DNA of 26,214 bases, from IMG/VR virus record IMGVR_UViG_3300032233_000764, positions 1-26,214 of that record, one strand, 5' to 3'. The notes beneath the pieces are model-generated. The model worked only from the letters and a program-made list of their open reading frames with translations, had not been told where the DNA came from and ran no database searches. A program made the translations under genes and the position numbers. Source of the DNA: a virus (taxonomy: Duplodnaviria; Caudoviricetes). This document shows positions 9,141 through 25,503 of the stretch, one piece after another; position 1 is the stretch's first letter; each line of letters begins with the position of its first letter.

Positions 9141-9689
9141 TTAGGGCTTAACGGGCTTAGGAAGCGATGCCCAAGCAGCGGCAAACTTTGCTGCGTCCAA
9201 AGCCATTTCTTGAGAAAGTTCTAGGTGCAACCACGATGGCGACCCCGAATACGAACCAGCATTATCGTCCTTTGTGAAAATTTTCACACCTTGTTTCCCC
9301 TCACCACGAGAGCACCTCCACCCTGCTCCGAAGTCGCCAAACGCATACCAGTGAATTTCGACCAGACCAAGAACTTCGCTGTGCTCAACTTTCTTACCGT
9401 CAATGACCGAGTTGCCAAGGAACCAGTCCCACATCTCTCTTGCGACAGTTTCGTTAGGATACTTACAGTCCAAGGCAGCGCCAGTCGCATGCGTACTCAT
9501 CCACTTACCCGCTTCAGGGTCAGTCAGTTTCATCCCGACTGTGTGGTCATTTTTCATCAACCTAACTTGATAGATGCCCAGCGAACTGCATTTCCATCTT
9601 TTGGTGCACAAATCAAGAAGTTTAAGGGTGCCCTCTTGGGCTTTTTTCCCGTCAAAACTAGGATAATAAGGGTATTTTCTGAGAGCCAT
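9141..9689 (-). CDS. Endolysin-like Zn peptidase (M15/LAS-type)
   Basis: R...STHATGAALD (SxHxxGxAxD) and C-terminal WLHLE; flanked by small membrane genes. Confidence 0.75.
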   Translation of the reverse strand: MALRKYPYYPSFDGKKAQEGTLKLLDLCTKRWKCSSLGIYQVRLMKNDHTVGMKLTDPEAGKWMSTHATGAALDCKYPNETVAREMWDWFLGNSVIDGKKVEHSEVLGLVEIHWYAFGDFGAGWRCSRGEGKQGVKIFTKDDNAGSYSGSPSWLHLELSQEMALDAAKFAAAWASLPKPVKP

Positions 9690-9724: not shown

Positions 9725-9892
9725 TTAATCATCGTCCGATTCAAATGCCATCCCGATGAGATTCAGCAACAGAGCACCACCAGAAATAAACAAACCAATT
9801 CTTTTGGTTTCTCCTGACAATGTAATCAGTACCAAAGCGGTACCAGCAAGGGTCCATATGAGACCGTTTAGTTTTGTAATGAAATTACTCAT
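9725..9892 (-). CDS. Small two-TM membrane protein (55 aa; absent from the ORF track)
   Basis: Hand translation MSNFITKLNGLIWTLAGTALVLITLSGETKRIGLFISGGALLLNLIGMAFESDDD; TAATG overlap with the upstream stop. Confidence 0.8.
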   Translation of the reverse strand: MSNFITKLNGLIWTLAGTALVLITLSGETKRIGLFISGGALLLNLIGMAFESDDD

Positions 9893-11115
9893 TAAATCAA
9901 TTTCCTTTTGGGATTAGTTCCAGCGGCAACGGGCGCTGCCATCATTGTGGCTACGACAGCATTGAGGATTCGACGCTGTCCGACATTTACAGTTGAACCA
10001 GTGGCAACATAAGTGTCAAATTTCCCTCCGTAGATGTCGACCTTTTCTTCAAAGGCTTCTTTAACCGCTGGAGGAGCATCGGTCAAAGTTTCAGCCAGAA
10101 TAACCAGTTCCGAATCAGAAAGATTTTCGATTGATTCTGCGATGACATTAACAATCGCATCAACCTGTTCTGAGTCAAGTTTGTCTGCTACTTCAGGATT
10201 CAAGACAGTCGTAAGGTCATTTAGTGTGACATCTTCGGCGGCTATCTGGGTCAACTGTGCTACTGACGCTGTAACAATTGCGTCAGTAATTACAGGGGGA
10301 ACTGTGGTTGGAGGCACACTTGTTGTGGTGGTGGGAGCAACCGTAGTTGATGTTGTGGTGGAGGTTGAAGTTGTGGTCGTTGGGCGCATCGCATAGACGG
10401 TTGTCGTTGTGGTCGGGGCTGCCGTTGTGGTCGTGGTCGTACTAGATGTAGTGGTCGTCGTGGTGCTGGTACTAGATGTAGTGGTTGGAGCCATAGTGGT
10501 ACTAGATGTGGTGGTTGGGGGCACGGTGGTACTAGATGTAGTGGTTGTAGTAGTTTGAGGGACCGTCGTCGTAGAAGTAGAGGTCGTAGATGTCGTGGTT
10601 GTGGTTGGTGCCACTGTCGTTGTGGTTGTACTTGTGCTGGTGGTGCTCGTAGATGTGGTCGGGGCTACCGTGGTGGTTGTTGCTTGGAGCGTTGTTGTTG
10701 TCTCTGGCGCTTGGGTGGTAGTGGTCTGCATTGACCCTTCACCGTTGAACCCCAGTTCGTATTGCAAGTTCCACCCCCCATTTGTACGCCAAGCGTTAGG
10801 GTCTCCACAGCAGATACCAGCCCTCAGTCTGTAACGACCAGCAGGCACGGCAATAAAAATGTAGGACTGCAAGCCATAACTGTCGTCATTGGCTGCAAGT
10901 TGCGTTCCCGCTTCGTCGTATAACCACAACATTGGGTCAGAGTTGTATCCTGCAACCATGTAAGTCTGCGCAACAAATTGAGTCGGCTCTGAATAGTCAA
11001 ACCAGACATCAGTCGGCTGCGTAATAATAAAGTTTTCAGCGTGAACCATCCCCGCTACGCATAACGACAAAAGCGGAGAGAAAACAAGAAGAAGCCGACT
11101 AGCCCTTTTTAGCAC
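9892..11115 (-). CDS. Secreted/surface protein with beta-rich N-domain, long Thr/Ser stalk and acidic helical C-domain
   Basis: GTG start 11115; signal peptide ending VHA; DPMLWLYD..G.QLAANDDS.GL.S (PPC-like); ~145-aa poly-Thr tract; hydrophobic/basic C-terminus. Confidence 0.8.
   Translation of the reverse strand: MLKRASRLLLVFSPLLSLCVAGMVHAENFIITQPTDVWFDYSEPTQFVAQTYMVAGYNSDPMLWLYDEAGTQLAANDDSYGLQSYIFIAVPAGRYRLRAGICCGDPNAWRTNGGWNLQYELGFNGEGSMQTTTTQAPETTTTLQATTTTVAPTTSTSTTSTSTTTTTVAPTTTTTSTTSTSTTTVPQTTTTTTSSTTVPPTTTSSTTMAPTTTSSTSTTTTTTSSTTTTTTAAPTTTTTVYAMRPTTTTSTSTTTSTTVAPTTTTSVPPTTVPPVITDAIVTASVAQLTQIAAEDVTLNDLTTVLNPEVADKLDSEQVDAIVNVIAESIENLSDSELVILAETLTDAPPAVKEAFEEKVDIYGGKFDTYVATGSTVNVGQRRILNAVVATMMAAPVAAGTNPKRKLI
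10439..10545. repeat. Four copies of GTACTAGATGT(A/G)GTGGT at a 30-nt period within the Thr stalk
   Basis: Copies start at 10439, 10469, 10499 and 10529; each encodes TTTSST. Confidence 0.85.
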
Positions 11116-11320
11116 CGAAGATTTCCGACAATTCAGACTTCGATACAACGCCATCATCAGCGTAGGCTCGAGCCAATTTTTCAATGACTTGGCTTGCAGC
11201 CACGATTCCAGCCAAAGCAGCAGCCTTGATTACGGACACGCCGAGAATAGAAGCGCCACCAATCATGGCAAGGCTTGTATAGCCGAATACGGCAAAAACA
11301 CGGAGAGCAATTTGTTTCAT
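11099..11320 (-). CDS. Holin-like membrane protein
   Basis: 73 aa, two hydrophobic segments, charged C-terminus (DDGVVSKSELSEIF); first gene after the tail module. Confidence 0.65.
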   Translation of the reverse strand: MKQIALRVFAVFGYTSLAMIGGASILGVSVIKAAALAGIVAASQVIEKLARAYADDGVVSKSELSEIFGAKKG

Positions 11321-11339: not shown

Positions 11340-11391
11340 GGACACAGGGGTCACTGGAATTACTGACTCAATCTAGTGCATCGCATCGACC
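11340..11391 (-). promoter_or_regulatory. Candidate late promoter and paired GTGACC/GTGTCC motif upstream of the lysis cassette
   Basis: GGTCGATGCGAT-N4-TAGATT (11391-11370), then GTGACC-CCT-GTGTCC (11354-11340). Confidence 0.5.
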
Positions 11392-11416
11392 CCGTCCAGT
11401 GAAGGTCGGTGGAGTA

Positions 11417-11731
11417 TCAATCTTCGACTAGGTCCCAACGAAAGGTGTCCATGTTTAACACCCATTCTCTGGCATCTGTCTCTCCCAAACGGTCAGGTTT
11501 AGGTGGGATAAAAGCGTCATGTTCTGCATCGTAGGTGTACAAAATGCCTGCAAAGTTTTTTCTTTGAGAACCATCTTCGTAGGTCCGCAACCAAAGAAAA
11601 TCGCCAAATTGTTTACAGTATTCCTCACCAATCAAATCAGAAAAATCACCGTTTTCATCCAACAATGCTTCATCGGGAACAACAATGCTATTAACAACAT
11701 TGCCATCAACTATTTTGCAATATATAGCCAT
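11417..11731 (-). CDS. Small tail-fibre-associated protein
   Basis: KIVDGNVVNSIVV...RKNFAGILYTYDAEHDAFIPPKP...W pattern typical of small genes following Gly-rich fibres; coupled to the upstream gene. Confidence 0.7.
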   Translation of the reverse strand: MAIYCKIVDGNVVNSIVVPDEALLDENGDFSDLIGEEYCKQFGDFLWLRTYEDGSQRKNFAGILYTYDAEHDAFIPPKPDRLGETDAREWVLNMDTFRWDLVED

Positions 11732-14700
11732 TAGTAATTACTTTCTGTCCATCCTGTGCCGCTTCTAGCACCATTGGGACCATAATACAGGAATTCGGCA
11801 TATCCGCCCGAACCCTCAGAAGTCATGTAGGTAGTGTTGTAAGTCCCTCCTTGACCAACGGTGGTTCCATAAGGCGAACCATAGTAAAGACCGCCACCGC
11901 CGCCGCCACCACCAAACAATGGACCTGCGTAGGTGGGGTATTTACCTGCACCACCATTTCCTCCTGTTAGTGACCCAGCATTTGCGTTTCCACCGTACCC
12001 GTTAGAACCGCCTCCGCCACCACCTGCTTCGTCACCGTTGAACAAGTTGTACCAACCTAATCCGCCTCCGAAGCCAGCACCTGACGAACCGCCATTCGGG
12101 TCTTGAAAGGGATTCCCCGCCAATCCTGCGTAACCACCAATAGCAGTCACTCCAAAGTTGGTAACTGTTGAGTTTCCACCGTTAGCACCGAGTCCGCCTG
12201 CAGCACCAATTGTGCCGACCATAGAACTAGCCAGAGTAAAGGAATAGCCTGTGTAGTTTTCGCCACCGCCACCGCCGCCGCCGCCTCTGTCTGACGCAGC
12301 ACCGCCACCGCCAGCAATCAACTGACCGTAGTAAGCAGTTGTGGATGCAATACCGCCAGCACCCGTGTTGGACCAATTTGGTGATGTCCATGTTCCACTA
12401 CCCGTATACCTAACAACTTTAAGTGTGTGAGTTGTGAAACTGTTGGTGTTCAGGGTTGCACCACCAAGGTCGTTTGAGGCAGACACACGAATCAGATATG
12501 TGGTGTTTGTGTTTACTGTCGGTATGTATCCCGTCACAGAATAAGTTTGCGAAGTAATTCCCGAAACAGCACCAAAAGCACTCGACCAACTAGCCCCTCC
12601 GTTGGTTGAATACTGGAACGATACTGAAGTGGCAAGACCGTTGTAATTAACTACTGCAGTTGCAGAAGCAGATGTTGCTGCATACGAAGGCGTCACGCTC
12701 GTAATTGTTGCGGCTGTTGCAGCGTCACTATATGTACTTGAACTGGTTGCCGAATCCTCAGCACCAATTGCTCTAACTCTCCAGTAATACCTTGTACCCA
12801 TGGTCAACCCAGTGAGTGCCACACTGCAATTGACTGCCGAACTACCCGAGATAGGTGAATTACTTGAAGCAACAGTCGTAAAAGTACCACCCGTAAAAGT
12901 TGAGTTCCCAGTTTTGTAATCAAAGTACACCATAGTGGAACGACCACCTGCGTTAACTACAGCAGTCAATGTCAAAGCCGTTGTTGATGGATGGGATTCA
13001 GACAGGACACTGATAACAGGAGTGACTGGAGCAGGAGTAGCAAACGCTGTACCACTAACATTCGTCACACCGACAGAGTTAGTAGCCCTTATCCGCCAAT
13101 AATATGTCGTGCTTGCGCTCAAACCGATTGTCGCACTAACCGACACTGGCGTATTTGAAGTAACTGGCGACTGAGTAGCAAGAATAGAACTGTAACCAGT
13201 TGTAAATGTTCCAGAACCAGTTTGATAATCAAAATACACAGTAGTCGAAGTACCGTTAGCATCGACTGTTCCGTTCAGAGTTGCCGAGTTATACACGACT
13301 GAAGAAGCGGCTGAAGCAACAACAGAAGGTGCGGCGTTGCCCGTGACAAAAGATGCCGCACTTGCTGTTGTAGATACAAACGCATTAGAAGCCACGATAC
13401 GGAAATAATAAGTGTAAGCAGCATCAAGGACACCACTCAAAGTTGCTGAAACAGCAACATTCTGTCCAGTTACAGTCGAAGGAGAAGCAGCCACTTGAGT
13501 TACTCCAGAACCAAACGAACCATCCTGACTGTATTGAAACACCACACCTGTCGATAGACCATTAGCAGACACTGTTCCGTTAAGTACCGCAGAATTTGTA
13601 GTCACGGAAGTTGCTGCACTCATCGACACAGTAGGAGGCGTAGGAGAAAAACGCCCAGAACCGTTCAATTTCATTCCCCACCGTTTAGGCGTCAAATCAA
13701 AATCAATACTGTTAATCAACATGTCCTGAGTGAACTGACTACCAACAGTTGGTGTTCGTATGAAACTAAACCTGTCCAGCAATTCAAGACTCAACAATTG
13801 TTGCCATTTAGCAAGAGTATTAGCCGATGTTCCCACCTCTAATTCACTGACGGTAGGAATCAATTGTGAATAATATTGAAGCCAAAAAGAAGCAAGAGCA
13901 GCAGCGCCAGCAGAAGTAGACATTTGTGTGTCAATACTTTCTGAATGCCTACCATAAGCCGATACCGATGCGCTATCTGTAGCAGTTTCTTGAACACTGC
14001 TGCCGTAATTAACAACAATCTCATTTCGTATGTTGTCGCCGTCATAGAAGATTGAGATGTCATCTTTGAAGTACCCGATATCTGTGCCAGTGTCAGTCAC
14101 AACAATCTGTGGATTTAGAGAAGTTGAATTCGTTGACACATAGGTACGGTTCACCGTTTTTATTACACCGCTTTTAGTGACAAACGCATAGCCGCCTTCG
14201 GTGTTCATTGCTTCATAAAGAGCGTCAGCAATGTTTGTATTTGGCTCAGGAGAACCAGATATTTCACCCACCGATGTACTATGCACATTGTAAAGTCCTG
14301 CAGGCACTTCAGAGAGAGCCAAAATGTTTGCGGCTCGAGCCGATGTTGATTCTGTTTTGTTTCCTGCTCCATATTGATAAAGGTTGACTATTTGCGAGTT
14401 TGACAACAAATAGTTAAACATTGCGACTTCTTGCAAAACCGCCGAGGATAAAGAAACTATTCTTGTTGGAAAAAGTTTAACTCCAGTTAATGGACTCACG
14501 AGCGAAGTGCCAGTTCTATTGACTCCATTTACAAAAATGTTTATGCTGCCAGAGGATGCCGTATAAGTGACTACATAATGTGAAGGAATTGTTGTACTTA
14601 CTTTTACATCAGTTCGTGTTTCGTAATCAAAAAGTGAATCATTGTTGAGTCGTACTTTAAGTAGTCCAGTTGTTGGATTGTTGCCAGTTATCTCTATTAG

Positions 14701-15441
14701 AGGACCAATTGGTGTAGGACTTGTGGGATACGAAATAGATATTATTGGATTTTGATTCGAGGAATCGGGGAAAGAAGCCCAAAACGAAATAGAAGCATCA
14801 CCTGTTGCTGGCGTAACAGCGGATGTTTTTGTGTAATTGGTATTTGCAACATCAGCGCTTGTGCCAGACAAAGCCAATCCAAGTGAATACTTTGCTACCA
14901 GAGTTTCGTTTGCTTGACCGCCAGAGACATTCAAATTGGTAGCGGCAGTGCCAAAATCTTTGATAACAGTATTACCGCTTGGGTCACTGCATTTGAAATA
15001 GTGATAGGGATTCAGGGACCGAGTATAAATGTCGGCATAATCGTTTTTGATGATTGTGCTCTGTAGCAGTGACATCGCATCAAAACAATCAACGGTGACT
15101 GTTGATGTTTTACCAGCGTCAGCCCATGTGACTGGAAAGCCGTTAACGAACCCTCTGAACATGTCGTAGGTCGTGCCGTTTGCTGTGCCACGGATGCGTA
15201 TTTGTCGGCGTGGAGTCAGTTTGCCGAAGTAAGTTCCCGAACTGTTAAACGGGTCGTATTTTCGGTCCTTGTTGTTAAGAACAAAATTTGCTGTGGCTGT
15301 GAAGTTTTTATCAAAATCGTCTGAGCGTCCACGGTGTATCGAAACATGGGTGACATCCGATGAAACATCTGTCCATGTTGGGGACACAACATAAGGACCA
15401 TGGTCAAAAGCAATTTCAACTATGAGTGTTGGGACAGCCAT
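11731..15441 (-). CDS. Multidomain tail-tip/receptor-binding protein (hub-like + LamG-like + 4 FN3-like + Gly-rich C-terminus)
   Basis: Directly follows the tape measure. WTDVS..V..V.I.RGR hub motif; LamG-like SISFW...HYVVTY...IFVNG...LQEVAMFNY.LS; four S..L.G.V..NG..T...F.Y...YY.R..A units; GGGGG-rich end. Confidence 0.85.
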   Translation of the reverse strand: MAVPTLIVEIAFDHGPYVVSPTWTDVSSDVTHVSIHRGRSDDFDKNFTATANFVLNNKDRKYDPFNSSGTYFGKLTPRRQIRIRGTANGTTYDMFRGFVNGFPVTWADAGKTSTVTVDCFDAMSLLQSTIIKNDYADIYTRSLNPYHYFKCSDPSGNTVIKDFGTAATNLNVSGGQANETLVAKYSLGLALSGTSADVANTNYTKTSAVTPATGDASISFWASFPDSSNQNPIISISYPTSPTPIGPLIEITGNNPTTGLLKVRLNNDSLFDYETRTDVKVSTTIPSHYVVTYTASSGSINIFVNGVNRTGTSLVSPLTGVKLFPTRIVSLSSAVLQEVAMFNYLLSNSQIVNLYQYGAGNKTESTSARAANILALSEVPAGLYNVHSTSVGEISGSPEPNTNIADALYEAMNTEGGYAFVTKSGVIKTVNRTYVSTNSTSLNPQIVVTDTGTDIGYFKDDISIFYDGDNIRNEIVVNYGSSVQETATDSASVSAYGRHSESIDTQMSTSAGAAALASFWLQYYSQLIPTVSELEVGTSANTLAKWQQLLSLELLDRFSFIRTPTVGSQFTQDMLINSIDFDLTPKRWGMKLNGSGRFSPTPPTVSMSAATSVTTNSAVLNGTVSANGLSTGVVFQYSQDGSFGSGVTQVAASPSTVTGQNVAVSATLSGVLDAAYTYYFRIVASNAFVSTTASAASFVTGNAAPSVVASAASSVVYNSATLNGTVDANGTSTTVYFDYQTGSGTFTTGYSSILATQSPVTSNTPVSVSATIGLSASTTYYWRIRATNSVGVTNVSGTAFATPAPVTPVISVLSESHPSTTALTLTAVVNAGGRSTMVYFDYKTGNSTFTGGTFTTVASSNSPISGSSAVNCSVALTGLTMGTRYYWRVRAIGAEDSATSSSTYSDAATAATITSVTPSYAATSASATAVVNYNGLATSVSFQYSTNGGASWSSAFGAVSGITSQTYSVTGYIPTVNTNTTYLIRVSASNDLGGATLNTNSFTTHTLKVVRYTGSGTWTSPNWSNTGAGGIASTTAYYGQLIAGGGGAASDRGGGGGGGGENYTGYSFTLASSMVGTIGAAGGLGANGGNSTVTNFGVTAIGGYAGLAGNPFQDPNGGSSGAGFGGGLGWYNLFNGDEAGGGGGGSNGYGGNANAGSLTGGNGGAGKYPTYAGPLFGGGGGGGGLYYGSPYGTTVGQGGTYNTTYMTSEGSGGYAEFLYYGPNGARSGTGWTESNY

Positions 15442-18440
15442 CAGTTAGTCCTGATAGGGATTCGACCAGAACGCTTTTCATAAGACTGCAATACCGATAC
15501 AAGTTGACGGGCAATAGCCTGCTCATCACCGATACCAGCCTGCACCGTGATGTGATATGTGTTGGAGCCGCCCATACCGCCCTTACCAAGAGGGATGACT
15601 GCTTCGTCACGACCAGCCTCACCAAGCAGAGCAAGTGTTCCGCCACTGCGGGCACGAACAATTCCGCCGTTAGCCATCTGTGGGATACTGTTCGTCATCT
15701 CGCTCAGGCTTGACATCTTGAATCCAATGCTCACACCAAAGTTCTTCTCCAAGTTCTTGACCTGCGCTGCAGTCAAGCCTTTAGATGTCAAAGAAAGATT
15801 CAACTTTTTGGCTGCGTCCGTGATGCCCTTAACAAGTTGCTCACCTTGGGAAAGACCCTGCTTGTAGAACTGTTCCTTAGCGCCCTTCGCTGCATCATCA
15901 GACGACTTCAATAATTCTTTGTACCATCTGTTCGCATTCGACACTGCTTCTGTTCCGCCAGCAAGAATCTCTAAACCAATCTTTGTACCAGCCTCACCAC
16001 CAGCAGCAACAACTTGTGAAATACCAGCCTGACCAAGACCAGCCTCCCGCAATCTTGTCAAGATATCGCTAAAGGCTTTGGCATCTTCATATTGCTTCTT
16101 CAAAGAATCCATAAAGGACATCTTGTTTTTCTCAGCAGTTGCAAGGTTCTCTGAAGCCTTTGCGTAATCTTCAGTTGCTTTGGTGTAGCCAGCGATGTCA
16201 CGCTTTTGTAGAGCCTCACCAACTGCTTTTTCGGCTGTAGCAACAGCATCCAAAGCAGTTTGATAATTGTCCTGTGAAGCCACTGCCTTGCTCATCGCAT
16301 TCGAGAAAGAAAACACTGCCATGATTGAATCTTTGATGCTCTTTGAGAAGTCGTCTGCTTGTTTTTTGATATCTTCAAAGAACTTTTTGGCTTTTGTTAC
16401 AGAGTCAGTGCCAAGTTTTTTGGCTGCAGCAACCAAGGCTTTAAGTGCATCTGCTCCTGCTCCTGTTCCGTTACCTGTTCCGTTACCTGTTCCGTTACCT
16501 TTGCCTTTGTCCTTGGCTTTGGAATCGATTGGTTGAAAGCCTTCGAACTTTCGGAAGTCCGCTGCGGAAACTTCAACAGCAGCAGCCTTTGCTGCGGCAG
16601 CAAGTTTTTTTGCTTTAGCAGTAGCGTTTTCCAACTTTGCACCTGTGATATCCAGCGACAGGTGCATGTGCTTCATCGGTTTGACATCTTTATGGAAGGG
16701 GAGCATGTTGTACCCCTTAATCAGCAAGTTGATTACATCGATGTATCTGTTTCCCATGAAGTTGATATATCCAAGAATTAGATTGATACCGACTTGAACA
16801 ATGCTGACAACCGAGTTCCAAATTCCTTTTAGCCCACGGCGGAACCATTCAAACTTTTGATACATCAACACGACTGCGATTGCAAGACCTACGACGGCGG
16901 CGATGACCAGACCTATTGGGGTTGATATCAATGACGCATTCAAGGCTTTTGTTGCGGCTGCAGCAGCCGTCGCCGCTGCCCCTTGTGCGGTTGTTGCAGC
17001 AGCAAGCGCCGCCTCAGAACCAGATGCTGCAGCAGAGGCGACAAGCATTTCTGCTTGTGCAACTACAAGTGCAGTAGAAGCAATAGCGGCAGTACCAGCA
17101 GCAGTTGCTTGAGCACCCGTTGCCCCAGTATTAGCCAACACAGCGGCAACTACACCCCAAATTGCTTTGGCGCTACCAAACAACGCATTTATCTTGCCAA
17201 CTGCTTTGAAACCAATATAAGCAGCAACAAGACCACCGACAACAGGAGTCAATGCTTCAAGGACAGCCTTATTTTCTGAAAGCAAACCAGTAAAACTTTG
17301 CAAAACGGTAGAAATAACCATCACTGCAGGAATGAATCCAACAAGGATTTGAGATATCAATGGAGCAAAGACCGTGCTTAAAGCCGTTATTGATTCACCA
17401 ATGGAAAGGAACAATGGCTGCAAAGCGGGAAGGGCAGCAGCCAACTGAGTGACTAAAGGAACGATTGCGGTTGCAATAGCCACTGCAATAGTTGAAACAG
17501 CCGTCATCATCGGTTCGATGGAAGGAATCAACTTTTGGAAACCATCCATAAAGACGGTCACCATATTTCCGATAGGTGTGACCATTCCCTTCATGACTTT
17601 GCCAATCGCATCGTTAATAGCGGGCATAGCGTTTTTGATTGCTTCGGTGGCTGGCTTCATCATGTCGCCAAGAGCAATGTTGATATTGTCCTTCAAAGTA
17701 GACATCAACCCTGTCAAAGTTTTTGATTGCTCGCTCATCATGCCCTTGACACGACCCATGGCTTCTCCAGAATAATTCTCGAGACCACTCATCAACTTGC
17801 CAACAGAGTCATCAAGTTTTCCTTGTTCAACAGCCTTCTTAACATCCGCAACAGACATGTTCGCTGCCGCTGCCAAAGTTGCCCAAGCAGGAATACCAGC
17901 ATTAGCCAACTGCATCATGTCCTGACCAGTTACCTTGCCCACAAGGTTCATCTGCTGCAACGCACGGGTTGCTGCAGCGATACCTTGAGCACCTGTACCC
18001 ATTGCCGCCGTCGAGTCACCGATAGCCGTCAAGATTGGCTTAACACGCTCTGCAGCAACACCAGTAGTCAACAGTTTTGATGCTGCGTCACGAAGTTGTG
18101 GGAATTCAAAAGGCGTAGAAGCAGCAAAGGTTTGCAAATCCTTAAACATGGCTTCTGCTTTTGCTTGAGAACCAAGAAGAGTTTTGAATGAGATAATGGC
18201 TTGTTCGTTCGCCATAGCGAAGCCGATACCCATTTTTGCGCCCATCATGGCAGCGGTTTGCATAGCGCCGCCACCAAGAATGGCAGCCTTCGACATGATA
18301 CTGAAGCCGCTTCGAACGATTCCAGATTGTCTCTGAACAGATTGACCAAAGTTGTCAGCAGAATCCTGTGCACGACGGAACCCACTGACCATGTTGTCAG
18401 CGTTCGCCCGTAGATGCGCTACGACTTCAAGCATTGCCAT
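15441..18440 (-). CDS. Tape measure protein
   Basis: 999 aa, Ala-rich and helical; FKTLLGS..KA..MF.DL..FAASTPFE tape-measure domain; hydrophobic middle; MANGGIV...LLGEAGRDEAVIPL C-terminal motif. Confidence 0.95.
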   Translation of the reverse strand: MAMLEVVAHLRANADNMVSGFRRAQDSADNFGQSVQRQSGIVRSGFSIMSKAAILGGGAMQTAAMMGAKMGIGFAMANEQAIISFKTLLGSQAKAEAMFKDLQTFAASTPFEFPQLRDAASKLLTTGVAAERVKPILTAIGDSTAAMGTGAQGIAAATRALQQMNLVGKVTGQDMMQLANAGIPAWATLAAAANMSVADVKKAVEQGKLDDSVGKLMSGLENYSGEAMGRVKGMMSEQSKTLTGLMSTLKDNINIALGDMMKPATEAIKNAMPAINDAIGKVMKGMVTPIGNMVTVFMDGFQKLIPSIEPMMTAVSTIAVAIATAIVPLVTQLAAALPALQPLFLSIGESITALSTVFAPLISQILVGFIPAVMVISTVLQSFTGLLSENKAVLEALTPVVGGLVAAYIGFKAVGKINALFGSAKAIWGVVAAVLANTGATGAQATAAGTAAIASTALVVAQAEMLVASAAASGSEAALAAATTAQGAAATAAAAATKALNASLISTPIGLVIAAVVGLAIAVVLMYQKFEWFRRGLKGIWNSVVSIVQVGINLILGYINFMGNRYIDVINLLIKGYNMLPFHKDVKPMKHMHLSLDITGAKLENATAKAKKLAAAAKAAAVEVSAADFRKFEGFQPIDSKAKDKGKGNGTGNGTGNGTGAGADALKALVAAAKKLGTDSVTKAKKFFEDIKKQADDFSKSIKDSIMAVFSFSNAMSKAVASQDNYQTALDAVATAEKAVGEALQKRDIAGYTKATEDYAKASENLATAEKNKMSFMDSLKKQYEDAKAFSDILTRLREAGLGQAGISQVVAAGGEAGTKIGLEILAGGTEAVSNANRWYKELLKSSDDAAKGAKEQFYKQGLSQGEQLVKGITDAAKKLNLSLTSKGLTAAQVKNLEKNFGVSIGFKMSSLSEMTNSIPQMANGGIVRARSGGTLALLGEAGRDEAVIPLGKGGMGGSNTYHITVQAGIGDEQAIARQLVSVLQSYEKRSGRIPIRTN
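16462..16500. repeat. 12-bp tandem repeat (CCTGTTCCGTTA x3) in the tape measure linker
   Basis: Three exact copies plus CCT; encodes GNGTGNGTGNGTG. Confidence 0.9.
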
Positions 18441-18453
18441 CTTTAGTTAATCC

Positions 18454-18630
18454 TCATCGTTGTTGCTGTTGCTCCCAGTTCCTAATTTTGTAGAGAGCCA
18501 TCCACTCCGTAATCTCCGCCGATGAAATCGCACGGTGACCATTAGAGCCATAAAGCAATTCTCCGACTGTTCGCCCTAGCGATTCGGCTAACTCAAAGAG
18601 GAAGCGTCGGCTAGGGCGTTCGAGAAATCC
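18454..18630 (-). CDS. -1 frame extension of the tail assembly chaperone (gpT-like; absent from the ORF track)
   Basis: The -1 frame reads FLERPSRRFLFELAESLGRTVGELLYGSNGHRAISSAEITEWMALYKIRNWEQQQQR*, has no own start near its 5' end and ends 14 nt before the TMP start. Confidence 0.85.
   Translation of the reverse strand, partial: GFLERPSRRFLFELAESLGRTVGELLYGSNGHRAISSAEITEWMALYKIRNWEQQQQR
18572..18630 (-). promoter_or_regulatory. Programmed -1 frameshift signal
   Basis: Slippery G_GAT_TTC (18630-18624), 5-nt spacer, perfect 9-bp stem CGCCCTAGC (18618-18610)/GCTAGGGCG (18580-18572). Confidence 0.8.
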
Positions 18631-18971
18631 TTGCCTGCCTTGTCGACTGCTCCTTCAAGCAATCCAGAGATTCGCATCGCCGTGTTAACAATCAAGTCGA
18701 GCGCTGCACCTGATTTAAGCATCAGGGCTTCACGGTCGGACTCGTTGAATACTTGCTCATCCGTTTCAGGGTCGAAAGTACACATAATGACAATGTCTGG
18801 CATCATCTTTGCGAAGTTCATAACACCGTCGTTGTCGGCGGCATTCTGAATCATCTGGGTGCGGGCTGCTCCCGACATTCCATGAACAGCGATTTTGGTA
18901 TTCCATTGTGGAACATCAATAATCTCTTTCTGGACATCGTCACATTGAAGGATTTGGTCACGAAGGGACAC
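18588..18971 (-). CDS. Tail assembly chaperone (gpG-like)
   Basis: Lies between the tube and TMP genes; LRDQIL..DD...E.IDVPQW...I.V.GMSGAAR pattern; GTG start after AGGAG. Confidence 0.88.
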   Translation of the reverse strand: MSLRDQILQCDDVQKEIIDVPQWNTKIAVHGMSGAARTQMIQNAADNDGVMNFAKMMPDIVIMCTFDPETDEQVFNESDREALMLKSGAALDLIVNTAMRISGLLEGAVDKAGKDFSNALADASSLS

Positions 18972-18990
18972 GGGTTTCTCCTGTTATTAG

Positions 18991-19404
18991 TTAGGCGTAA
19001 GTGCCACGGGTAACTGTACCAGTCACCTGAAACTCTGCTGAGAATGTAACAACATCAGCGACTGGTGCAGTTGTCTCGTAAGAGGTCAAGTAGCACTCAC
19101 CTGTGTATTTGATGTTGCCAGCGGTGGTGCCAGATGGACCGTACTCGTAAGACACTGAAGCGTCTTGTCCGAGGATTCCAGCAAGGTGAGCATCGACTGT
19201 TGCGTCCCATGTGCCCTTGATAGAAACGGTTGAATCGGTGAGACCTACAACATAGGTCTTGGCGCTATTGCCAAAACTGGTCGTTTCGCCTGTTTCGATT
19301 GAACGGGGATGTGTAATTTCGTTCAGATATGTCGAGATGTCAGTCAGCGTACCGCCTGAGTTATCGACCTTAAATGAAGCGGACTTTCCGTGTTTGAATG
19401 CCAT
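18991..19404 (-). CDS. Major tail tube protein
   Basis: HGK...ETGETTSFG..AKTYVVGL.DS.VSIKG.WD...YTGECYLTSYE..APVADVVTFSAEFQVTG; SD TAAGGAG. Confidence 0.85.
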   Translation of the reverse strand: MAFKHGKSASFKVDNSGGTLTDISTYLNEITHPRSIETGETTSFGNSAKTYVVGLTDSTVSIKGTWDATVDAHLAGILGQDASVSYEYGPSGTTAGNIKYTGECYLTSYETTAPVADVVTFSAEFQVTGTVTRGTYA

Positions 19405-19419
19405 GATTGGTGTTGCTCC

Positions 19420-20136
19420 TTAGCGTCTTGCGAAATTCGCATGGTAGGTGATTGAACCCGTGGTTCCCGCAATGGTGTGGTTGACACGGAGGTAACGGTT
19501 AACGGTGCCTGTGACAGCGACCCGTTCCGAAGTAACGGAGGTCGTGCTGACCACCGCAAATGTTATTAAGTCAGCCCATGTTGAGTTATCGGCTGAGTGT
19601 TGAATCTTGATTGTGCTGGTGCCGTTGCGGGTGTTGGTCGGGACATGGATTTGTCCGACACCGCCGTTGGTTGTGGAAGTTGCGTTGTCGATTGCTGTTG
19701 AACTGCCTGTTGCGTTTGTTGCGGTCAACGCATAGAGGGAGATACCACGGTCCATACGGTCGGTTGTTTGACCTTCCATAGAGATTGAAACGACATCAGC
19801 CACAGGCGAAGTGATTTCATACGAGGTAAACAAAGAGTTGAAGGTCGTCACCCGAGAACCAGCGGACAAACCTTCTGGAGCAACTGTGATTAATTCGTTA
19901 TCGGTGGCAAGAGCGGTACTGATGATTTGGTCCACAGCGCCAGCGTCACCGTCATAAAAACCTTTAAGCGCCATGGTTGAGTCTGTCAATCCAACAAGAT
20001 AAGTCTTGGCGGATGAACCATAGGTCGTGGTTTCACCTGTCTCAATAGATTGCGAAACAGAAGTTTCTGCAAAGAACGACGACAAGTCGTATTGGTTAAT
20101 CAGAACTTTTGTGTTTTTGCCGTGACGGAAAGTCAT
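19420..20136 (-). CDS. Tail tube paralogue with extra C-terminal beta domain
   Basis: Shares SIETGETT, SAKTY.VGLTDST and TSYE.T.PVADVV with 18991-19404; extra ~105 aa (IKIQHSADNSTWADL...NRYLRV). Confidence 0.8.
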   Translation of the reverse strand: MTFRHGKNTKVLINQYDLSSFFAETSVSQSIETGETTTYGSSAKTYLVGLTDSTMALKGFYDGDAGAVDQIISTALATDNELITVAPEGLSAGSRVTTFNSLFTSYEITSPVADVVSISMEGQTTDRMDRGISLYALTATNATGSSTAIDNATSTTNGGVGQIHVPTNTRNGTSTIKIQHSADNSTWADLITFAVVSTTSVTSERVAVTGTVNRYLRVNHTIAGTTGSITYHANFARR

Positions 20137-20318
20137 TCCGCTACCTCCAGTGTCTCTTCAACTTCATCGGTCGGTTCTTCTTTGCCGCCGACAAGTTCAA
20201 TTGCACCAGATTCCCGTAGCCACTTGATGGCTTTAGGAGGCAGGTCTGACACGATGTCGTCTATCTCGGCTCGTTTGCCAAGGTATTCAATTCCTGTGTT
20301 GACCTTATATTGCGCCAT
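20133..20318 (-). CDS. Small virion-associated hypothetical protein (61 aa)
   Basis: Start MAQYKVNTG at 20318 after TAGGAG; WLRESGAIE motif and acidic tail; ATGA overlap with the tube paralogue. Confidence 0.75.
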   Translation of the reverse strand: MAQYKVNTGIEYLGKRAEIDDIVSDLPPKAIKWLRESGAIELVGGKEEPTDEVEETLEVAE

Positions 20319-20445
20319 CGGTGCTCCTATTACTAGGCGTGACAGAACCTCGAGTGAGGTCTGGACCACTAGGGCACGAAAGCAAACCGACAACCGAGGT
20401 CACTAGGACACGCTATTCAGAGATTGTACGGCAATCGCATAGACC
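20319..20445 (-). promoter_or_regulatory. Candidate late promoter and structured leader with repeated GTGYCCTAGTG motifs
   Basis: GGTCTATGCGAT-N5-TACAAT (20445-20423); GTGTCCTAGTGACC (20411-20398); GTGCCCTAGTGGTC (20377-20364); hairpin CAGACCTC/GAGGTTCTG; third CCTAGT just before the SD. Confidence 0.6.
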
Positions 20446-20463
20446 AGTTGTCGTTGACTATGG

Positions 20464-21021
20464 TCAACCTTTCAGCGGGGTTTCAACATATCTTTCGCTA
20501 AGAGGGCGGCGAGTTTTCCAGTTGACACAATTGCGTCCCCAACTCGGCGTTCTTACTGATGGACGGAAGAATGGTCTGTCATTCAATCTGTCCTCAAAAG
20601 TGATAAAAGTGTTTCTGGTTTGATATCCCAAAAAAGAGATTCTGTTAGCAACAACAATTTGTTGATGCTTGGTCGCATCCTTCGGTGACTTTGCAAACTC
20701 CCAACCGCCGTAGCCACGCCACGCTGATTGGGCGATACCAAGACCGCCTGCGTAATAGCCGCCGTCATTCCAGTTGTGGTTGGTTTCACACCATGAGACC
20801 GCTTCCCAGAAGCGGATAGATGCAGCCTTTTTGCTGCGTAATTGAGCGGCAAGTTCTGACGGCATGCTCGGGACATAAATTTTCGGAAATTGGTTTTGCA
20901 GTTCCGATGCTGCAATGTCTGTAATGACAATTGTGTTCGGCGTGAGCGCTTGGGCTTGTGTCGAAGTGAGATGGATAGTGCTGATGATTGAGAAGGCAAC
21001 AAGTGCCAGATGCTTTTGCAT
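20464..21021 (-). CDS. Secreted Rpf-like (resuscitation-promoting factor/transglycosylase-like) protein
   Basis: Signal peptide ending AQA; WEAVSWCET..NW...YYAGGLGI.QSAW..YGG.EFA.SP..ATK.QQI.VA.RI matches the Rpf domain with the catalytic Glu retained. Confidence 0.85.
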   Translation of the reverse strand: MQKHLALVAFSIISTIHLTSTQAQALTPNTIVITDIAASELQNQFPKIYVPSMPSELAAQLRSKKAASIRFWEAVSWCETNHNWNDGGYYAGGLGIAQSAWRGYGGWEFAKSPKDATKHQQIVVANRISFLGYQTRNTFITFEDRLNDRPFFRPSVRTPSWGRNCVNWKTRRPLSERYVETPLKG

Positions 21022-21160
21022 GAAATTCCTTTGAACGGTGTACGGGGAAACAGGCGTTTAACGCCATTGTTTATTCAAAAGAACCTCCTTGCGGGGTGCG
21101 TAATTCAACATTTCGTTGAAGTCGTAATACAACATGTCTAGTTGGTGAATGTTCTGTTCG
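21022..21160 (-). ncRNA. Candidate structured cis-regulatory 5' leader of the Rpf-like gene
   Basis: Stems AGAAC/GTTCT, CAAC/GTTG, TTCAAC/GTTGAA, CC-GCAA-GG, GGCGT/ACGCC, plus a 10-bp TTCTTTTGAA/TTCAAAGGAA stem covering the SD. Folded by eye only. Confidence 0.5.
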
Positions 21161-21190
21161 CCAGCCTAACAAAATCTGGCTGGATGTCAA
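21161..21190 (-). promoter_or_regulatory. SigA-type promoter with overlapping inverted repeat
   Basis: TTGACA (21190-21185), N16, TGn-extended TAGGCT (21168-21163); inverted repeat CCAGCC (21183-21178)/GGCTGG (21166-21161). Confidence 0.75.
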
Positions 21191-21346
21191 CTATTTGGCG
21201 TTTTTAGCCTTGCAGCGGTTGCAGAGAATCAACCATGGTCTAGTGACCTTGATTGCCAAAAGGCGGTTACAGCGCCAGCATCGGGGTGCTTCGTCGGTTG
21301 GGAAAGTCCGACCGTATGGGTCTGGGACGGGTTCGTCTTGGCTCAT
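21191..21346 (-). CDS. Com-like zinc-ribbon protein (51 aa)
   Basis: RCWRCNRLLA...ILCNRCKAKN matches the Mu Com-family pattern RC..C.+LL.....I.C.RC...N; ATGA overlap start at 21346. Confidence 0.75.
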   Translation of the reverse strand: MSQDEPVPDPYGRTFPTDEAPRCWRCNRLLAIKVTRPWLILCNRCKAKNAK

Positions 21347-23496: not shown

Positions 23497-25503
23497 CTAC
23501 GAAACTTTTCCTGCGTTGCCGCCTGTCGTAACGAGGAGTTTAGACCCTCGGGTCGTTACCGAGCCAGCAGAACCAATCGCATCGACGGAGCCAGTGGTCG
23601 TAAAGATTCTGATTCGTTTGAAGCCTTCTGAATATGCCGAGCCGATTCCAACATTGGAAGCGGACCGAGGGACCCTGTGGAGACCCAACACGGTTGCTGT
23701 GCCTGACCCGACCGCTGTTGCTTGGCGGGGAGCCTTATGAAGTTTGGTTGCAGAAGAAGTACCGATTGAGGCGTTGGTGCCGTAACGGAAGGTTTTGATG
23801 AGGCGAACTGTTGTAGCAGCACCTGAGCCGCTGGCTGTAGCGGTTCTAAGCGACTTGTGAACCCCGAGGGTGATGCTGACACCCGTACCAGTATTTGACG
23901 CTGTGCGCTTCCTATTGACCAGCCCAGTGGCTGTATTTGCGGTTGTTGCCTGACCAGCACCTTGGGCGTTGCGATAAATCTTGTGGAGGATTGAGTTGTT
24001 TGAAAAACCAGTACCGCTGCCCGTAGCCGAGCGATAAACCTTGCGAAGTTTGGCTGCATTCGATGTCCCTGTGCCTGAAGCGGTGGCGGAGCGTTTGGGT
24101 GTGCGGCGGATAGCCGTTGTGAATGACGAAGTTCCTGAGCCAGATGCGGTTCTTGGCAAACGGTGCAGTTGAATCGCATTCGATGTTCCAACGCCAGAAG
24201 CGGCTGCCGTTTTTATGACTTTGTGCACATAAACGGCTTGACTGGTTCCCGTTCCTGAAGCAGCAGCGGTCTTAAAAACTTTGTGCAGTGCATTCGCATT
24301 CGATGAACCAGTGCCTGCAGCGGTGGCGGTCTTGAAAACCTTGTGCAGCCCGACCGATATTGAATCTCCTAAACCAGAGGCTGATGTCGTTTTGCGGATT
24401 GTTCGAAGAGTTACAACGCTCGAGTCTGATGTCCCCTGCCCAGTTGCGGTTTTGATTGAACGATGCAACCCAACAGCAGTGCCCTCTGTGGCGGCTTGTC
24501 CAGCGCCTTGGGCATTTCGATAAATCTTGTGCAGGATTGAGTTTGATGATGAACCCAGCCCAGTTGCCGTCCCTTGGCGTTTGTGGGCAAGAAGCGAATC
24601 ATCGGCTTGGCTGCCGACACCCGAACCTGTTCCTGAGCGGAACATGGTTGCTTTGCGAACAACAACTGCTGTTCCTATGCCAAAGCCAGAAGCATTTCGT
24701 TTATTGGTGTGAACAAATACAGTCGTTGAACTTGATGAGCCGTTCGCATTGGCGGTCCGTTTGTTGGTGTGAAGGATTGAAGTGCTAGATGAGCCAAGAC
24801 CCAAGGCTGAGGCAGCCCGTTTATTGGTGTGAACAAAAGTTGAGACTGATGTCCCCGTGCCCGACGCTGTAGCGGTCTTGAAAACTTTGTGAAGTATGGC
24901 TGTGGTGCTTGTGCCTAGACCAGAACCTGTAGCGCTTCTAATGGCTTTGCGTAGACCAACAGCGGTCCCCTCGGTTGCTGCCTGACCTGCACCTTGAGCA
25001 TTGCGATACAACTTGTGCAATATCGAGTTTGATGATGTGCCAGTACCAACCCCAGTACCTGTTCGAAATACCTTATGATTTGTATTCGCATTGGATGTTC
25101 CAGCGCCCGAACCGACGGCAGTTCGGTAACGAAGATTGGTAACCGTAACTGAAGAGGTTCCAGCCCCAGATGCTGATGCAGTTTTGAGAACTTTCCGCAA
25201 CTTAGAAGTCGTTGAAGAACCGACTCCAGAAGCAGTAGCGGTTCTGTTGTTTTTTACAAGCCGAGTAGCGGTTGCCGACCCTGTTCCCGACCCTGTTGCA
25301 GTTTTGGGGACTTTCCGAAGTTGAACGACAACAGCACTTCCAAGACCAGACGCTGTGGCGGTACGCTGCCTTTTAACAAGCCGTGTAACAGAAGAAGAAC
25401 CAGTTCCGCTACCTGAAGCGGTACGGCTATATAGAACACTTACTTGATTGTAAGTTGTGGTTCCCGCTGAGTAGAGAACGCTGGGGTCATTATATGTAGC
25501 CAT
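23497..25503 (-). CDS. 668-aa basic tandem-repeat protein (30 units of 20/22 aa), probable virion fibre
   Basis: Consensus [RK]TA.[AG]SG.G.S....L[HR]K..; 26 aa + 27x20 + 3x22 + 36 aa = 668. Confidence 0.85.
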   Translation of the reverse strand: MATYNDPSVLYSAGTTTYNQVSVLYSRTASGSGTGSSSVTRLVKRQRTATASGLGSAVVVQLRKVPKTATGSGTGSATATRLVKNNRTATASGVGSSTTSKLRKVLKTASASGAGTSSVTVTNLRYRTAVGSGAGTSNANTNHKVFRTGTGVGTGTSSNSILHKLYRNAQGAGQAATEGTAVGLRKAIRSATGSGLGTSTTAILHKVFKTATASGTGTSVSTFVHTNKRAASALGLGSSSTSILHTNKRTANANGSSSSTTVFVHTNKRNASGFGIGTAVVVRKATMFRSGTGSGVGSQADDSLLAHKRQGTATGLGSSSNSILHKIYRNAQGAGQAATEGTAVGLHRSIKTATGQGTSDSSVVTLRTIRKTTSASGLGDSISVGLHKVFKTATAAGTGSSNANALHKVFKTAAASGTGTSQAVYVHKVIKTAAASGVGTSNAIQLHRLPRTASGSGTSSFTTAIRRTPKRSATASGTGTSNAAKLRKVYRSATGSGTGFSNNSILHKIYRNAQGAGQATTANTATGLVNRKRTASNTGTGVSITLGVHKSLRTATASGSGAATTVRLIKTFRYGTNASIGTSSATKLHKAPRQATAVGSGTATVLGLHRVPRSASNVGIGSAYSEGFKRIRIFTTTGSVDAIGSAGSVTTRGSKLLVTTGGNAGKVS

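Follow-up and report, generated by a model that had tools for sequence, protein, structure and literature searches.

The locus examined here raises the question of whether one very small phage protein can control several late genes through copies of a short RNA element. It lies on IMG/VR record IMGVR_UViG_3300032233_000764, a stretch of 26,214 nucleotides (nt; hereafter the window) from a tailed phage, which encodes a 51-amino-acid (aa) CxxC/CxxC protein resembling the translational regulator Com of phage Mu. A first-pass annotation of the window had proposed that this protein recognizes four pairs of GTGNCC-type hexamers at late-gene 5' ends. On the basis of current results, the pairs are conserved hairpins that very probably make up an RNA-level, multi-site regulon read by the Com-like protein. 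We also favor, with moderate confidence, a reading of mixed direction, in which these Com-type hairpins, likely bound by the 51-aa protein, would repress the first gene of the tail operon and the tail assembly chaperone gene and activate a holin-like gene. The location of the sites in start regions, their strand bias, stem covariation, independence of reading frame, concerted change from a GU to a GA form and covariation of an adjoining linker all come from sequence comparison.

All four hexamer pairs were present at the claimed positions on the minus (coding) strand (hairpins 1 to 4 in Table 1). The pattern occurred four times on this strand and not at all on the other, and four matches were never reached in Markov simulations (orders 1, 2, 3 and 5; 150 each), whose means were 0.05-0.16. 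Single GTGNCC hexamers were balanced between the strands (21 and 22), and the bias was confined to pairs. The first two pairs, previously assigned to the leader of the tail tube gene, actually precede a 61-aa gene at the head of the tail operon (20133-20318; hereafter the lead gene). The third does begin at the GTG start codon of the chaperone gene (18971), so that hairpin 3 covers the start, and the fourth precedes the holin-like gene as claimed, although it ends 19 rather than 20 nt before the ATG at 11320. It should be noted that the pattern was chosen post hoc from the window sequence; conservation in relatives is therefore the real test.

A first survey of 112 loci and the window, which were not dereplicated, gave 142 pairs for the coding strand, against 15 for the opposite one. 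Grouping of 187 loci yielded 84 clusters (90% identity over 1 kb). Among clusters that encode the Com-like gene (Com-positive clusters), a relaxed pair marked 47 of 51 leaders of the lead gene and 36 of 46 starts of the chaperone gene; the strict pattern was found in 39 and 28, respectively, with 126 sense and 8 antisense matches. Pairs were absent or nearly so at the starts of the two major tail genes (0/50 and 0/51) and of the terminator (0/54), closure (1/53), neck (0/41) and tape-measure (0/12) genes. Thus, the pairs are conserved at orthologous start regions of relatives that have the Com-like gene, in a strand-specific manner. Autoregulation was considered and rejected, as only 1 of 58 Com-gene leaders had a pair. 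In 17 whole records, the pattern was rare at low G+C (2-5 matches), mostly at these same starts, and in some other lineages an extra site belonged to a small gene that immediately precedes the head-tail adaptor (hereafter the pre-adaptor gene). The holin-like site was limited to the window and four close lineages or contig groups, and holin-like homologs of 51-52% elsewhere had no hairpin site. An exact 15-mer scan of viral contigs returned 17 stretches, of which 4 were starts of holin-like genes, 3 were leaders of the lead gene and 1 was a chaperone start, with 9 unassigned. The proposal of a multi-site regulon thus holds in that several sites are conserved, but its holin-like arm is present in few lineages, and the tape-measure gene, which had been included, has no site of its own.

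Each pair reads GU-[GNC]-C-N2-4-GU-[GN'C]-C, that is, a mini-hairpin with a 3-bp stem and a loop of C-N2-4-GU. Watson-Crick complementarity of the middle positions N and N' was seen at 90 of the 103 sites in leaders (37.8 on average after shuffling; reached in 0 of 5000 shuffles) and in 47 of 57 unique strings (shuffle 17.3), while antisense matches gave 20 of 91 (shuffle 22.4). The four pairs of the window are U-A, C-G, U-A and A-U, and 8 of the 13 non-complementary sites came from one clade in which the stem is shifted by one base. In 108 lead-gene sites preselected for a paired middle position, the outer stem pair was G-C in 69, A-U in 22 and G-U in 17, and never A-C; acceptance of G-U with avoidance of A-C points to RNA. 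According to the accessible part of a study using SELEX, electrophoretic mobility shift assays and selective 2'-hydroxyl acylation analyzed by primer extension (PMC6483171), the sequence bound by Mu-type Com is CC(N)2-3GAG, placed in a hairpin loop with a C-G closing pair, and the target has a two-copy motif. The window sites match this form with GU in place of GA, and one clade of relatives (hereafter the GA clade) matches it exactly. Thus, what had been described as a dispersed bipartite RNA element is instead a Mu-type mini-hairpin.

Could the chaperone site be a by-product of coding? It spells M-S-L-R-D in the window, the pattern had been fitted to the window, and S-x-R-D is conserved in the protein even where no pair overlies it (internal copies in Arthrobacter phages Laroye and Ottawa). 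However, in all four cultured phages examined for this point (Laroye, Ottawa, Waltz and Kovu), a pair stands at the chaperone start in other frames and over N-terminally different chaperones, and the Waltz pair contains a stop codon; the pair is therefore not a peptide artefact. Of 31 GU clusters with M-S-x-R-D, 19 had only an intact site on the start and 2 had both this and an upstream site, whereas 7 combined a degenerate on-start site with an upstream one and 3 were ATG variants without a scored upstream pair. An upstream site was present in all six GU clusters that had lost the CGT codon. The switch in the GA clade, whose loci were retrieved with the protein of locus L048, is also informative. 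Both lead-gene hairpins have Mu-form GA loops (the second site is atypical in two close variants, L198 and L199), an upstream GAG pair is gained at the chaperone gene in 16 of 16 clusters, and the chaperone codons change as well: Arg4 is encoded by AGA in 16 of 16 GA clusters and 0 of 31 GU clusters, a synonymous difference (two further rows, left unclassified, had CGT). The switch extends over three or four sites and takes in a silent codon as well. With conservation in non-coding leaders, covariation, retention under other frames and this synonymous change, the view that the sites reflect chance and coding is refuted, and we give it practically no weight.

The sites accompany the Com-like gene and change sequence in concert, as the co-occurrence originally proposed would imply. 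Laroye, Ottawa, Waltz and Kovu all encode the gene, approximately 10-15 kb from the chaperone site. Twelve clusters in which it was not seen despite at least 2 kb of upstream sequence had no pair at the scored leaders, and two complete phages with a related chaperone had neither gene nor site. In four 'Com not seen' clusters that do have pairs, the contigs begin 4-1589 bases before the tail genes. The pair-free clusters and the two complete Com-less phages, together with a loop that fits the target measured for Mu-type Com (an exact fit in the GA clade), argue against a different reader, such as a host protein, an autogenous tail protein or another phage protein, with the zinc-ribbon gene merely traveling with the tail module. 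On the other hand, independent losses are few (six changes on the tube tree, two of them forced by strong branches; this was a quick tree, in which the L036 row is a mis-picked long branch), and many records are fragmentary. GA-clade proteins differ from GU proteins at several positions, and no single residue separates the two groups when a shifted-register GU clade is included. Ile40 (39/39 GU) against Leu (23/23 GA) was rejected as sole specificity residue because that clade had been dropped, and its members L017 and L028 carry Leu at position 40; Tyr33 was likewise rejected, as L122 is GU with Tyr, and L213 and L219 are GA without it. Taken together, we consider a different reader highly improbable. 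Separately, the Com-like open reading frame (ORF) of Laroye (L113:14697-14880) is unannotated, and tblastn showed that 10 of 14 Arthrobacter records have no feature under this ORF. Rhodococcus phage Shagrat (L235:8900-8990) has three GAGACC copies in its chaperone leader, and a Com-like gene was not found in its complete genome.

The ORF itself is real, and its start agrees with homologs. Its product is a zinc ribbon of the approximately 50-60-aa CxxC...CxxC type, with four cysteines invariant across 22 homologs, and it matches phrog_6417 ('translational regulator') at E 0.0011. Ten of the 22 aligned homologs match PF10122 at E<=1 (best 1.2e-4), that of Ottawa exceeds the PF10122 cut-off (23.1 bits), and many of 271 database relatives were named 'phage FluMu protein Com' by JGI. 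The 51-aa protein would thus be a member of a Com-related subfamily, linked to PF10122 through its homologs, rather than a strict PF10122 member. Its predicted model has only short strands (predicted local distance difference test score 70), a PDB sequence search gave a best E of 0.26, and NCBIfam gave nothing decisive on the window proteins. Approximately 710 IMG/VR stretches match the Com-like protein patterns, many of them aquatic actinophage-like genomes. Prophage-like regions of Dehalococcoidia metagenome-assembled genomes (L174-L184) contain close homologs after a head-morphogenesis-like gene and before capsid genes and a toxin-antitoxin pair, which we take to be RelE/HigB-like; they were rejected as regulon carriers, with zero hairpin sites around the gene across the five loci that were read.

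Some observations weigh against the regulon or its reader. The window protein had no hit to PF10122 (cut-off of 22.9 bits not reached), and in a fold search the BFVD Com-family model scored E 1.9, with none at E<=0.001. The Com-like gene was seen in 0 of 21 Com-negative IMG/VR records, all of them fragments; the GA switch represents only one or two events on the tree; and because the clusters are kin, p-values overstate independence. Laroye and Ottawa have the Com-like gene and no pair in the lead-gene leader. Isolated hairpins fold at -0.6 to -1.2 kcal/mol, which does not exceed the stability of shuffles, so that capture by a protein would be needed. RNAalifold on 16 leaders, in an alignment (MAFFT) whose register varies between sub-lineages, recovered neither the mini-hairpins nor a helix masking the Shine-Dalgarno (SD) sequence, and returned five invariant pairs between half-sites 2 and 4 with zero covariation. 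One RNA run (share 0.06) contained contigs of relatives only.

The pairs might also be DNA operators or parts of promoters to which the zinc ribbon binds as a transcription factor. Of the three sites, two are found just downstream of -10-like hexamers, the stem doubles as a short DNA inverted repeat, and some family members carry the database name 'Com family DNA-binding transcriptional regulator'. In 48 of 55 leaders, hairpin 1 is preceded by a TANNNT hexamer that ends 5-16 nt away, compared with 11 of 55 in a control window further upstream; in the window, a scan for sigma-70 promoters did not pick up the TGCGAT...TACAAT element. Judged from their sequence, the promoter-like elements would place the sites just inside the transcript, in the 5' untranslated region (UTR). 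Besides the base-pair preferences of the stem, the operator view is opposed by a spacer of 2 to 4 or more nt, the strictly one-strand orientation, the covariation of the linker with the SD sequence and AUG (see below), and a chaperone site that tracks the start codon 20 nt past the tube stop, where no promoter was seen. We therefore regard it as very unlikely. Gating by a terminator was rejected as well; none was seen at the sites, and the promoter and terminator scan was at chance level. With regard to the promoter-like elements themselves, TGCGAT with a TANNNT hexamer stands upstream of both leaders (TGCGAT occurs 16 times on the minus strand and 8 times on the other), TGCGATGCAC also stands just upstream of the Com-like start (21358, minus strand), and the TGCGAT/TANNNT element is possibly a late promoter read with the phage WhiB protein (7-507). 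Laroye-type phages share a further leader element, CGACCCCGGCGTGTCG...GGGCCCGAA-like and perhaps a late promoter, which takes the place of the hairpin pair upstream of the tail lead gene and of the scaffold/capsid block (leaders of genes 24 and 63 of L113; lead-gene leaders of L236 and L237).

In which direction would binding act? At the lead gene, the linker between the two hairpins pairs better with its own SD sequence and AUG than with swapped starts in 25 of 31 lineages. Median duplex energies were -14.8 kcal/mol with the own start, -10.9 with starts of other phages, -8.1 with those of other genes and -9.2 when shuffled (20 of 51 leaders, without two scorable hairpins, were excluded). Forcing both hairpins raised the cost of opening the SD-to-AUG region in 39 of 51 clusters (median from 9.9 to 13.5 kcal/mol; from 9.0 to 17.8 at the lead gene of the window), including 19 of 23 in the GA clade, where none was lowered. 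Masking hairpin 1 closed the site more than masking other windows in 41 of 51 clusters, and more than in shuffled leaders in 42 of 51. The open fold of the window leader depends on the hairpin 1 strand. According to these models, binding would close the ribosome site of the tail operon, that is, repress it. Since the lead-gene stop overlaps the next start (ATGA in the window; such an overlap in 63 of 72 clusters), the first major tail gene is likely translationally coupled to the lead gene and would follow its output.

At the chaperone gene, the unbound start region is predicted to be open, and the hairpin either lies on the GUG or, for upstream hairpins, ends 0-8 nt before the SD sequence in 28 of 31 cases; blocking is therefore the simplest reading. 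Sites of RNA-binding proteins within the initiation region tend to repress, as stated in the accessible part of 10.1101/174888. The pre-adaptor gene has the site on its start in some lineages, and binding closes the SD sequence in five of seven upstream cases, so one sign is predicted for two layouts. The holin-like gene behaves differently in the models: the cost of opening its SD sequence drops upon binding from approximately 10 to 3-4 kcal/mol in three of three lineages, and a distant, complete Com-positive record (L240) has an altered yet equivalent fold that buries it. Binding would open this ribosome site and thus activate the gene. The rule that hexamers hide the SD sequence and binding frees it was rejected in general form (ddG, the change in free energy, 0.31 against 0.32 kcal/mol for random masks, n=47, p=0.63); it holds for the holin-like gene only.

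The main competitor is that the same protein and hairpins activate all targets, as Mu Com does, with the helix between linker and SD sequence melted by binding at either side of the linker and the chaperone site opened or the hairpin there displaced by ribosomes. Mu Com activates through melting of a neighboring inhibition structure, as the available portion of PMC6483171 describes, and the site at the holin-like gene is of an activating type. In the window leader, the closed fold is already the minimum free energy (MFE) structure (-43.7, compared with -35.0 for the open fold), with the linker paired to the SD sequence and AUG, so activation by melting also fits. The unbound SD sequence of the lead gene is more buried (7.4 kcal/mol) than at six other genes (3.7-5.0), and masking only hairpin 2 leads to opening in 20 of 51 clusters and to closing in 3. 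The closed MFE fold and the buried SD sequence also count against a mixed sign, as do further points: forcing both hairpins lowered the opening cost in 7 of 51 clusters, hairpin 1 ranked first among closing windows in only 12 of 51, upstream chaperone hairpins left SD opening unchanged (4.0 and 4.1, n=31), sites in the 5' UTR can act either way according to the part of 10.1101/174888 at hand, and all predictions of sign rest on equilibrium folding. Activation throughout is nevertheless difficult to reconcile with the closing seen when both hairpins are forced, with the masking result, which equals that of random masks, and with the chaperone start, which is not buried when unbound and whose codon is included in the hairpin, so that there is nothing to unmask. 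We consider it rather unlikely. For the coordinated expression proposed in the first-pass annotation, the models do not favor joint, Mu-like activation; they predict repression at the lead and chaperone genes, with the holin-like gene as the one case of activation.

The mixed-sign reading can be put as four steps. First, the protein would, with high confidence, capture the marginally stable hairpin through its C-N2-4-GU loop. Second, a bound chaperone hairpin, on the GUG or 0-8 nt before the SD sequence, would quite probably block the 30S subunit. Third, and with only a slight preference on our part, binding of hairpin 1 would deprive the open fold of its strand, the linker would pair with the SD sequence and AUG, and the coupled major tail gene would fall too; with the same slight preference, hairpin 2 alone would loosen the site, and the response may be biphasic. 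Fourth, it is reasonably probable that the unbound holin-like site buries the SD sequence and that binding frees it, as at Mu mom. The system likely serves a late change from the making of tail parts to lysis, or sets the amounts of those parts. A stronger version, in which one hairpin forms a two-sign late switch that shuts tail parts and opens the holin-like gene, with protein and sites recoded from GU to GA in one clade, is a tentative proposal that we would not yet adopt.

Table 1. Positions of hairpins, leader elements and genes in the window
Feature	Position	Strand	Remarks
Promoter-like TGCGAT...TACAAT	20423..20439	-	Ends 11 nt upstream of hairpin 1
Hairpin 1, stem GUC/GAC, loop CUAGU	20398..20411	-	
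Linker between hairpins 1 and 2	20378..20397	-	Predicted anti-SD/anti-AUG strand
Hairpin 2, stem GCC/GGU including a G-U pair, loop CUAGU	20364..20377	-	
Spacer hairpin, from hairpin 2 to SD	20343..20363	-	MFE folds
Lead-gene SD, AGGAG	20328-20324	-	Sequence
Hairpin 3, on chaperone GTG start and codons 1-6	18956..18971	-	SD at 18982-18978
Promoter-like TGCGAT...TAGATT	11385-11370	-	Precedes hairpin 4, in holin-like leader
Hairpin 4, stem GAC/GUC	11354-11340	-	Holin-like SD AGAGGT (11333-11328) pairs with unbound site
Com-like zinc-ribbon gene, 51 aa	21191..21346	-	C23xxC26 and C42xxC45; start overlaps stop of upstream 90-aa gene
Transglycosylase-domain gene	20464..21021	-	PF06737, E 3e-13; outside regulon, separates Com-like gene from regulated leader
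Lead gene of tail operon, 61 aa	20318-20133	-	phrog_7924, unknown function
Major tail protein 1, 238 aa	19420..20136	-	phrog_9522, E 8e-66; annotated as major tail protein in Arthrobacter phages
Tail tube protein, 137 aa	18991..19404	-	PF06199; own SD, no site (pair in 0/51 leaders)
Tail assembly chaperone	18971-18588	-	phrog_344, E 1e-19
Candidate -1 frameshift site, GGATTTC	18630-18624	-	Leads to open frame ending at 18454, resembling long chaperone form
Holin-like membrane protein, 73 aa	11099..11320	-	First gene of probable lysis block

The window represents a 26-kb piece of a phage genome (46% complete) and also encodes WhiB, amidoligase and glutamine amidotransferase. The nearest cultured relatives of its tail proteins are from Arthrobacter phages, and its host is therefore presumably actinobacterial. 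On the minus strand, neck genes, the tail terminator gene and the 90-aa gene are followed by the Com-like gene, the transglycosylase gene, the leader and the lead gene; then come the 238-aa and 137-aa major tail genes, the chaperone, tape-measure and tail protein genes and a 104-aa gene, and, behind a second leader, the holin-like gene and a probable lysis block. The Com-like gene does lie upstream of the tail genes, as had been noted, but its assignment to the same operon is doubtful because the transglycosylase gene intervenes and the leader has its own -10-like hexamer. The heptamer GGATTTC, which we take to be slippery, is a putative frameshift site, and a frameshifted chaperone form is annotated in Ottawa and Kovu. 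For the 73-aa protein, ESM Atlas neighbors, used as leads only, include a 'Holin family protein' (0.93) and a PF16945 cluster (0.88); it had no Pfam match, and its PHROG match carries a nuclease label. A search of the whole window against the models of Rfam 15 gave no match at E<=1.

Several other features were observed nearby or in relatives. There is a probable endolysin of 182 aa (9141-9689, minus strand), for which there was no Pfam, NCBIfam or useful PHROG match and whose SxHxxGxAxD...H pattern is presumably that of M15 peptidases. The lysis block includes a protein of 430 aa (9892-11184, minus strand) that has a long tract rich in Thr and is hydrophobic over a C-terminal stretch. A 668-aa repeat-rich Thr/Ser/Gly/Ala protein (23497-25503, minus strand) precedes the head-tail adaptor. 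Beyond the tail block, extra hairpin sites were found near the start of a 543-aa secreted-looking protein in L229 (G022:4162) and on the start of a 275-aa ORF in L230 (G026:52979). In a distant phage (L037:10388-10430), the Com-like gene is followed by a stretch resembling a tRNA and by clustered GTGNCC half-sites, which stand immediately ahead of a small gene and the terminase block.

The Com-like family offers a precise site and a natural specificity switch, and the cultured phages Laroye, Waltz, Kovu and Ottawa carry the chaperone site, which makes it directly testable. If the mixed sign is true, the system would be a post-transcriptional timer that joins tail assembly to lysis, as well as a source of very small orthogonal RNA-binding parts. 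If the two-sign switch is true, it would provide two naturally occurring, mutually orthogonal RNA readers, as well as a repressor version of an activator family. No description of a Com-like tail/chaperone/holin regulon was found in the literature within reach of our search, which excluded most subscription journals, and the accessible part of the Aca paper (PMC13551039) had nothing on the Com-like family.

Among known systems, the MS2 coat protein, acting on the replicase operator, and T4 RegA repress translation by binding across start regions. In these phage systems a protein bound to RNA at the initiation region blocks the ribosome, which is also the prediction for the chaperone site; their folds, however, are unrelated, and no second gene is activated in step. 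A further system is that of Mu Com, acting on mom (PF10122 Zn_ribbon_Com; PHROG 6417). Mu Com is likewise a small four-cysteine zinc protein, and as far as the available text of PMC6483171 goes, the target in both systems is a short hairpin whose CC-N2-3-G[A/U]G loop has a C-G closing pair, and both share a two-copy arrangement and control of a ribosome site via an alternative fold, the last being a prediction in our case. Freeing of a buried ribosome site is predicted here at the holin-like gene and not at the lead or chaperone gene. The window system further differs in that the loop has GU in most lineages and GA in one clade, the half-site is 6 nt with a 3-bp stem, and each genome has 2-5 sites, at virion and holin-like genes instead of a DNA-modification gene. 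The gene downstream of the Com-like gene encodes a transglycosylase and is not mom-like, the Com-like gene generally has no site of its own, and the protein has an N-terminal DPYG extension and almost no C-terminal tail. Repression is predicted at most targets. Mu Com is cited in the part of 10.1101/174888 at hand as a notable exception among mostly inhibitory RNA-binding regulators. In Pseudomonas, com-like genes precede genes for L-type bacteriocin, tailocin cargo and tailocin lytic enzymes, and their wider role is called unexplored in the accessible portion of PMC6240691. These genes resemble the present one in being PF10122-type, often unannotated and associated with non-mom targets including a lysis gene; they differ in standing directly before the presumed target, with no RNA site named in that portion, whereas here one gene is linked to several distant sites. 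The feature is real, and Com-type translational control would here act on virion and lysis-block genes.

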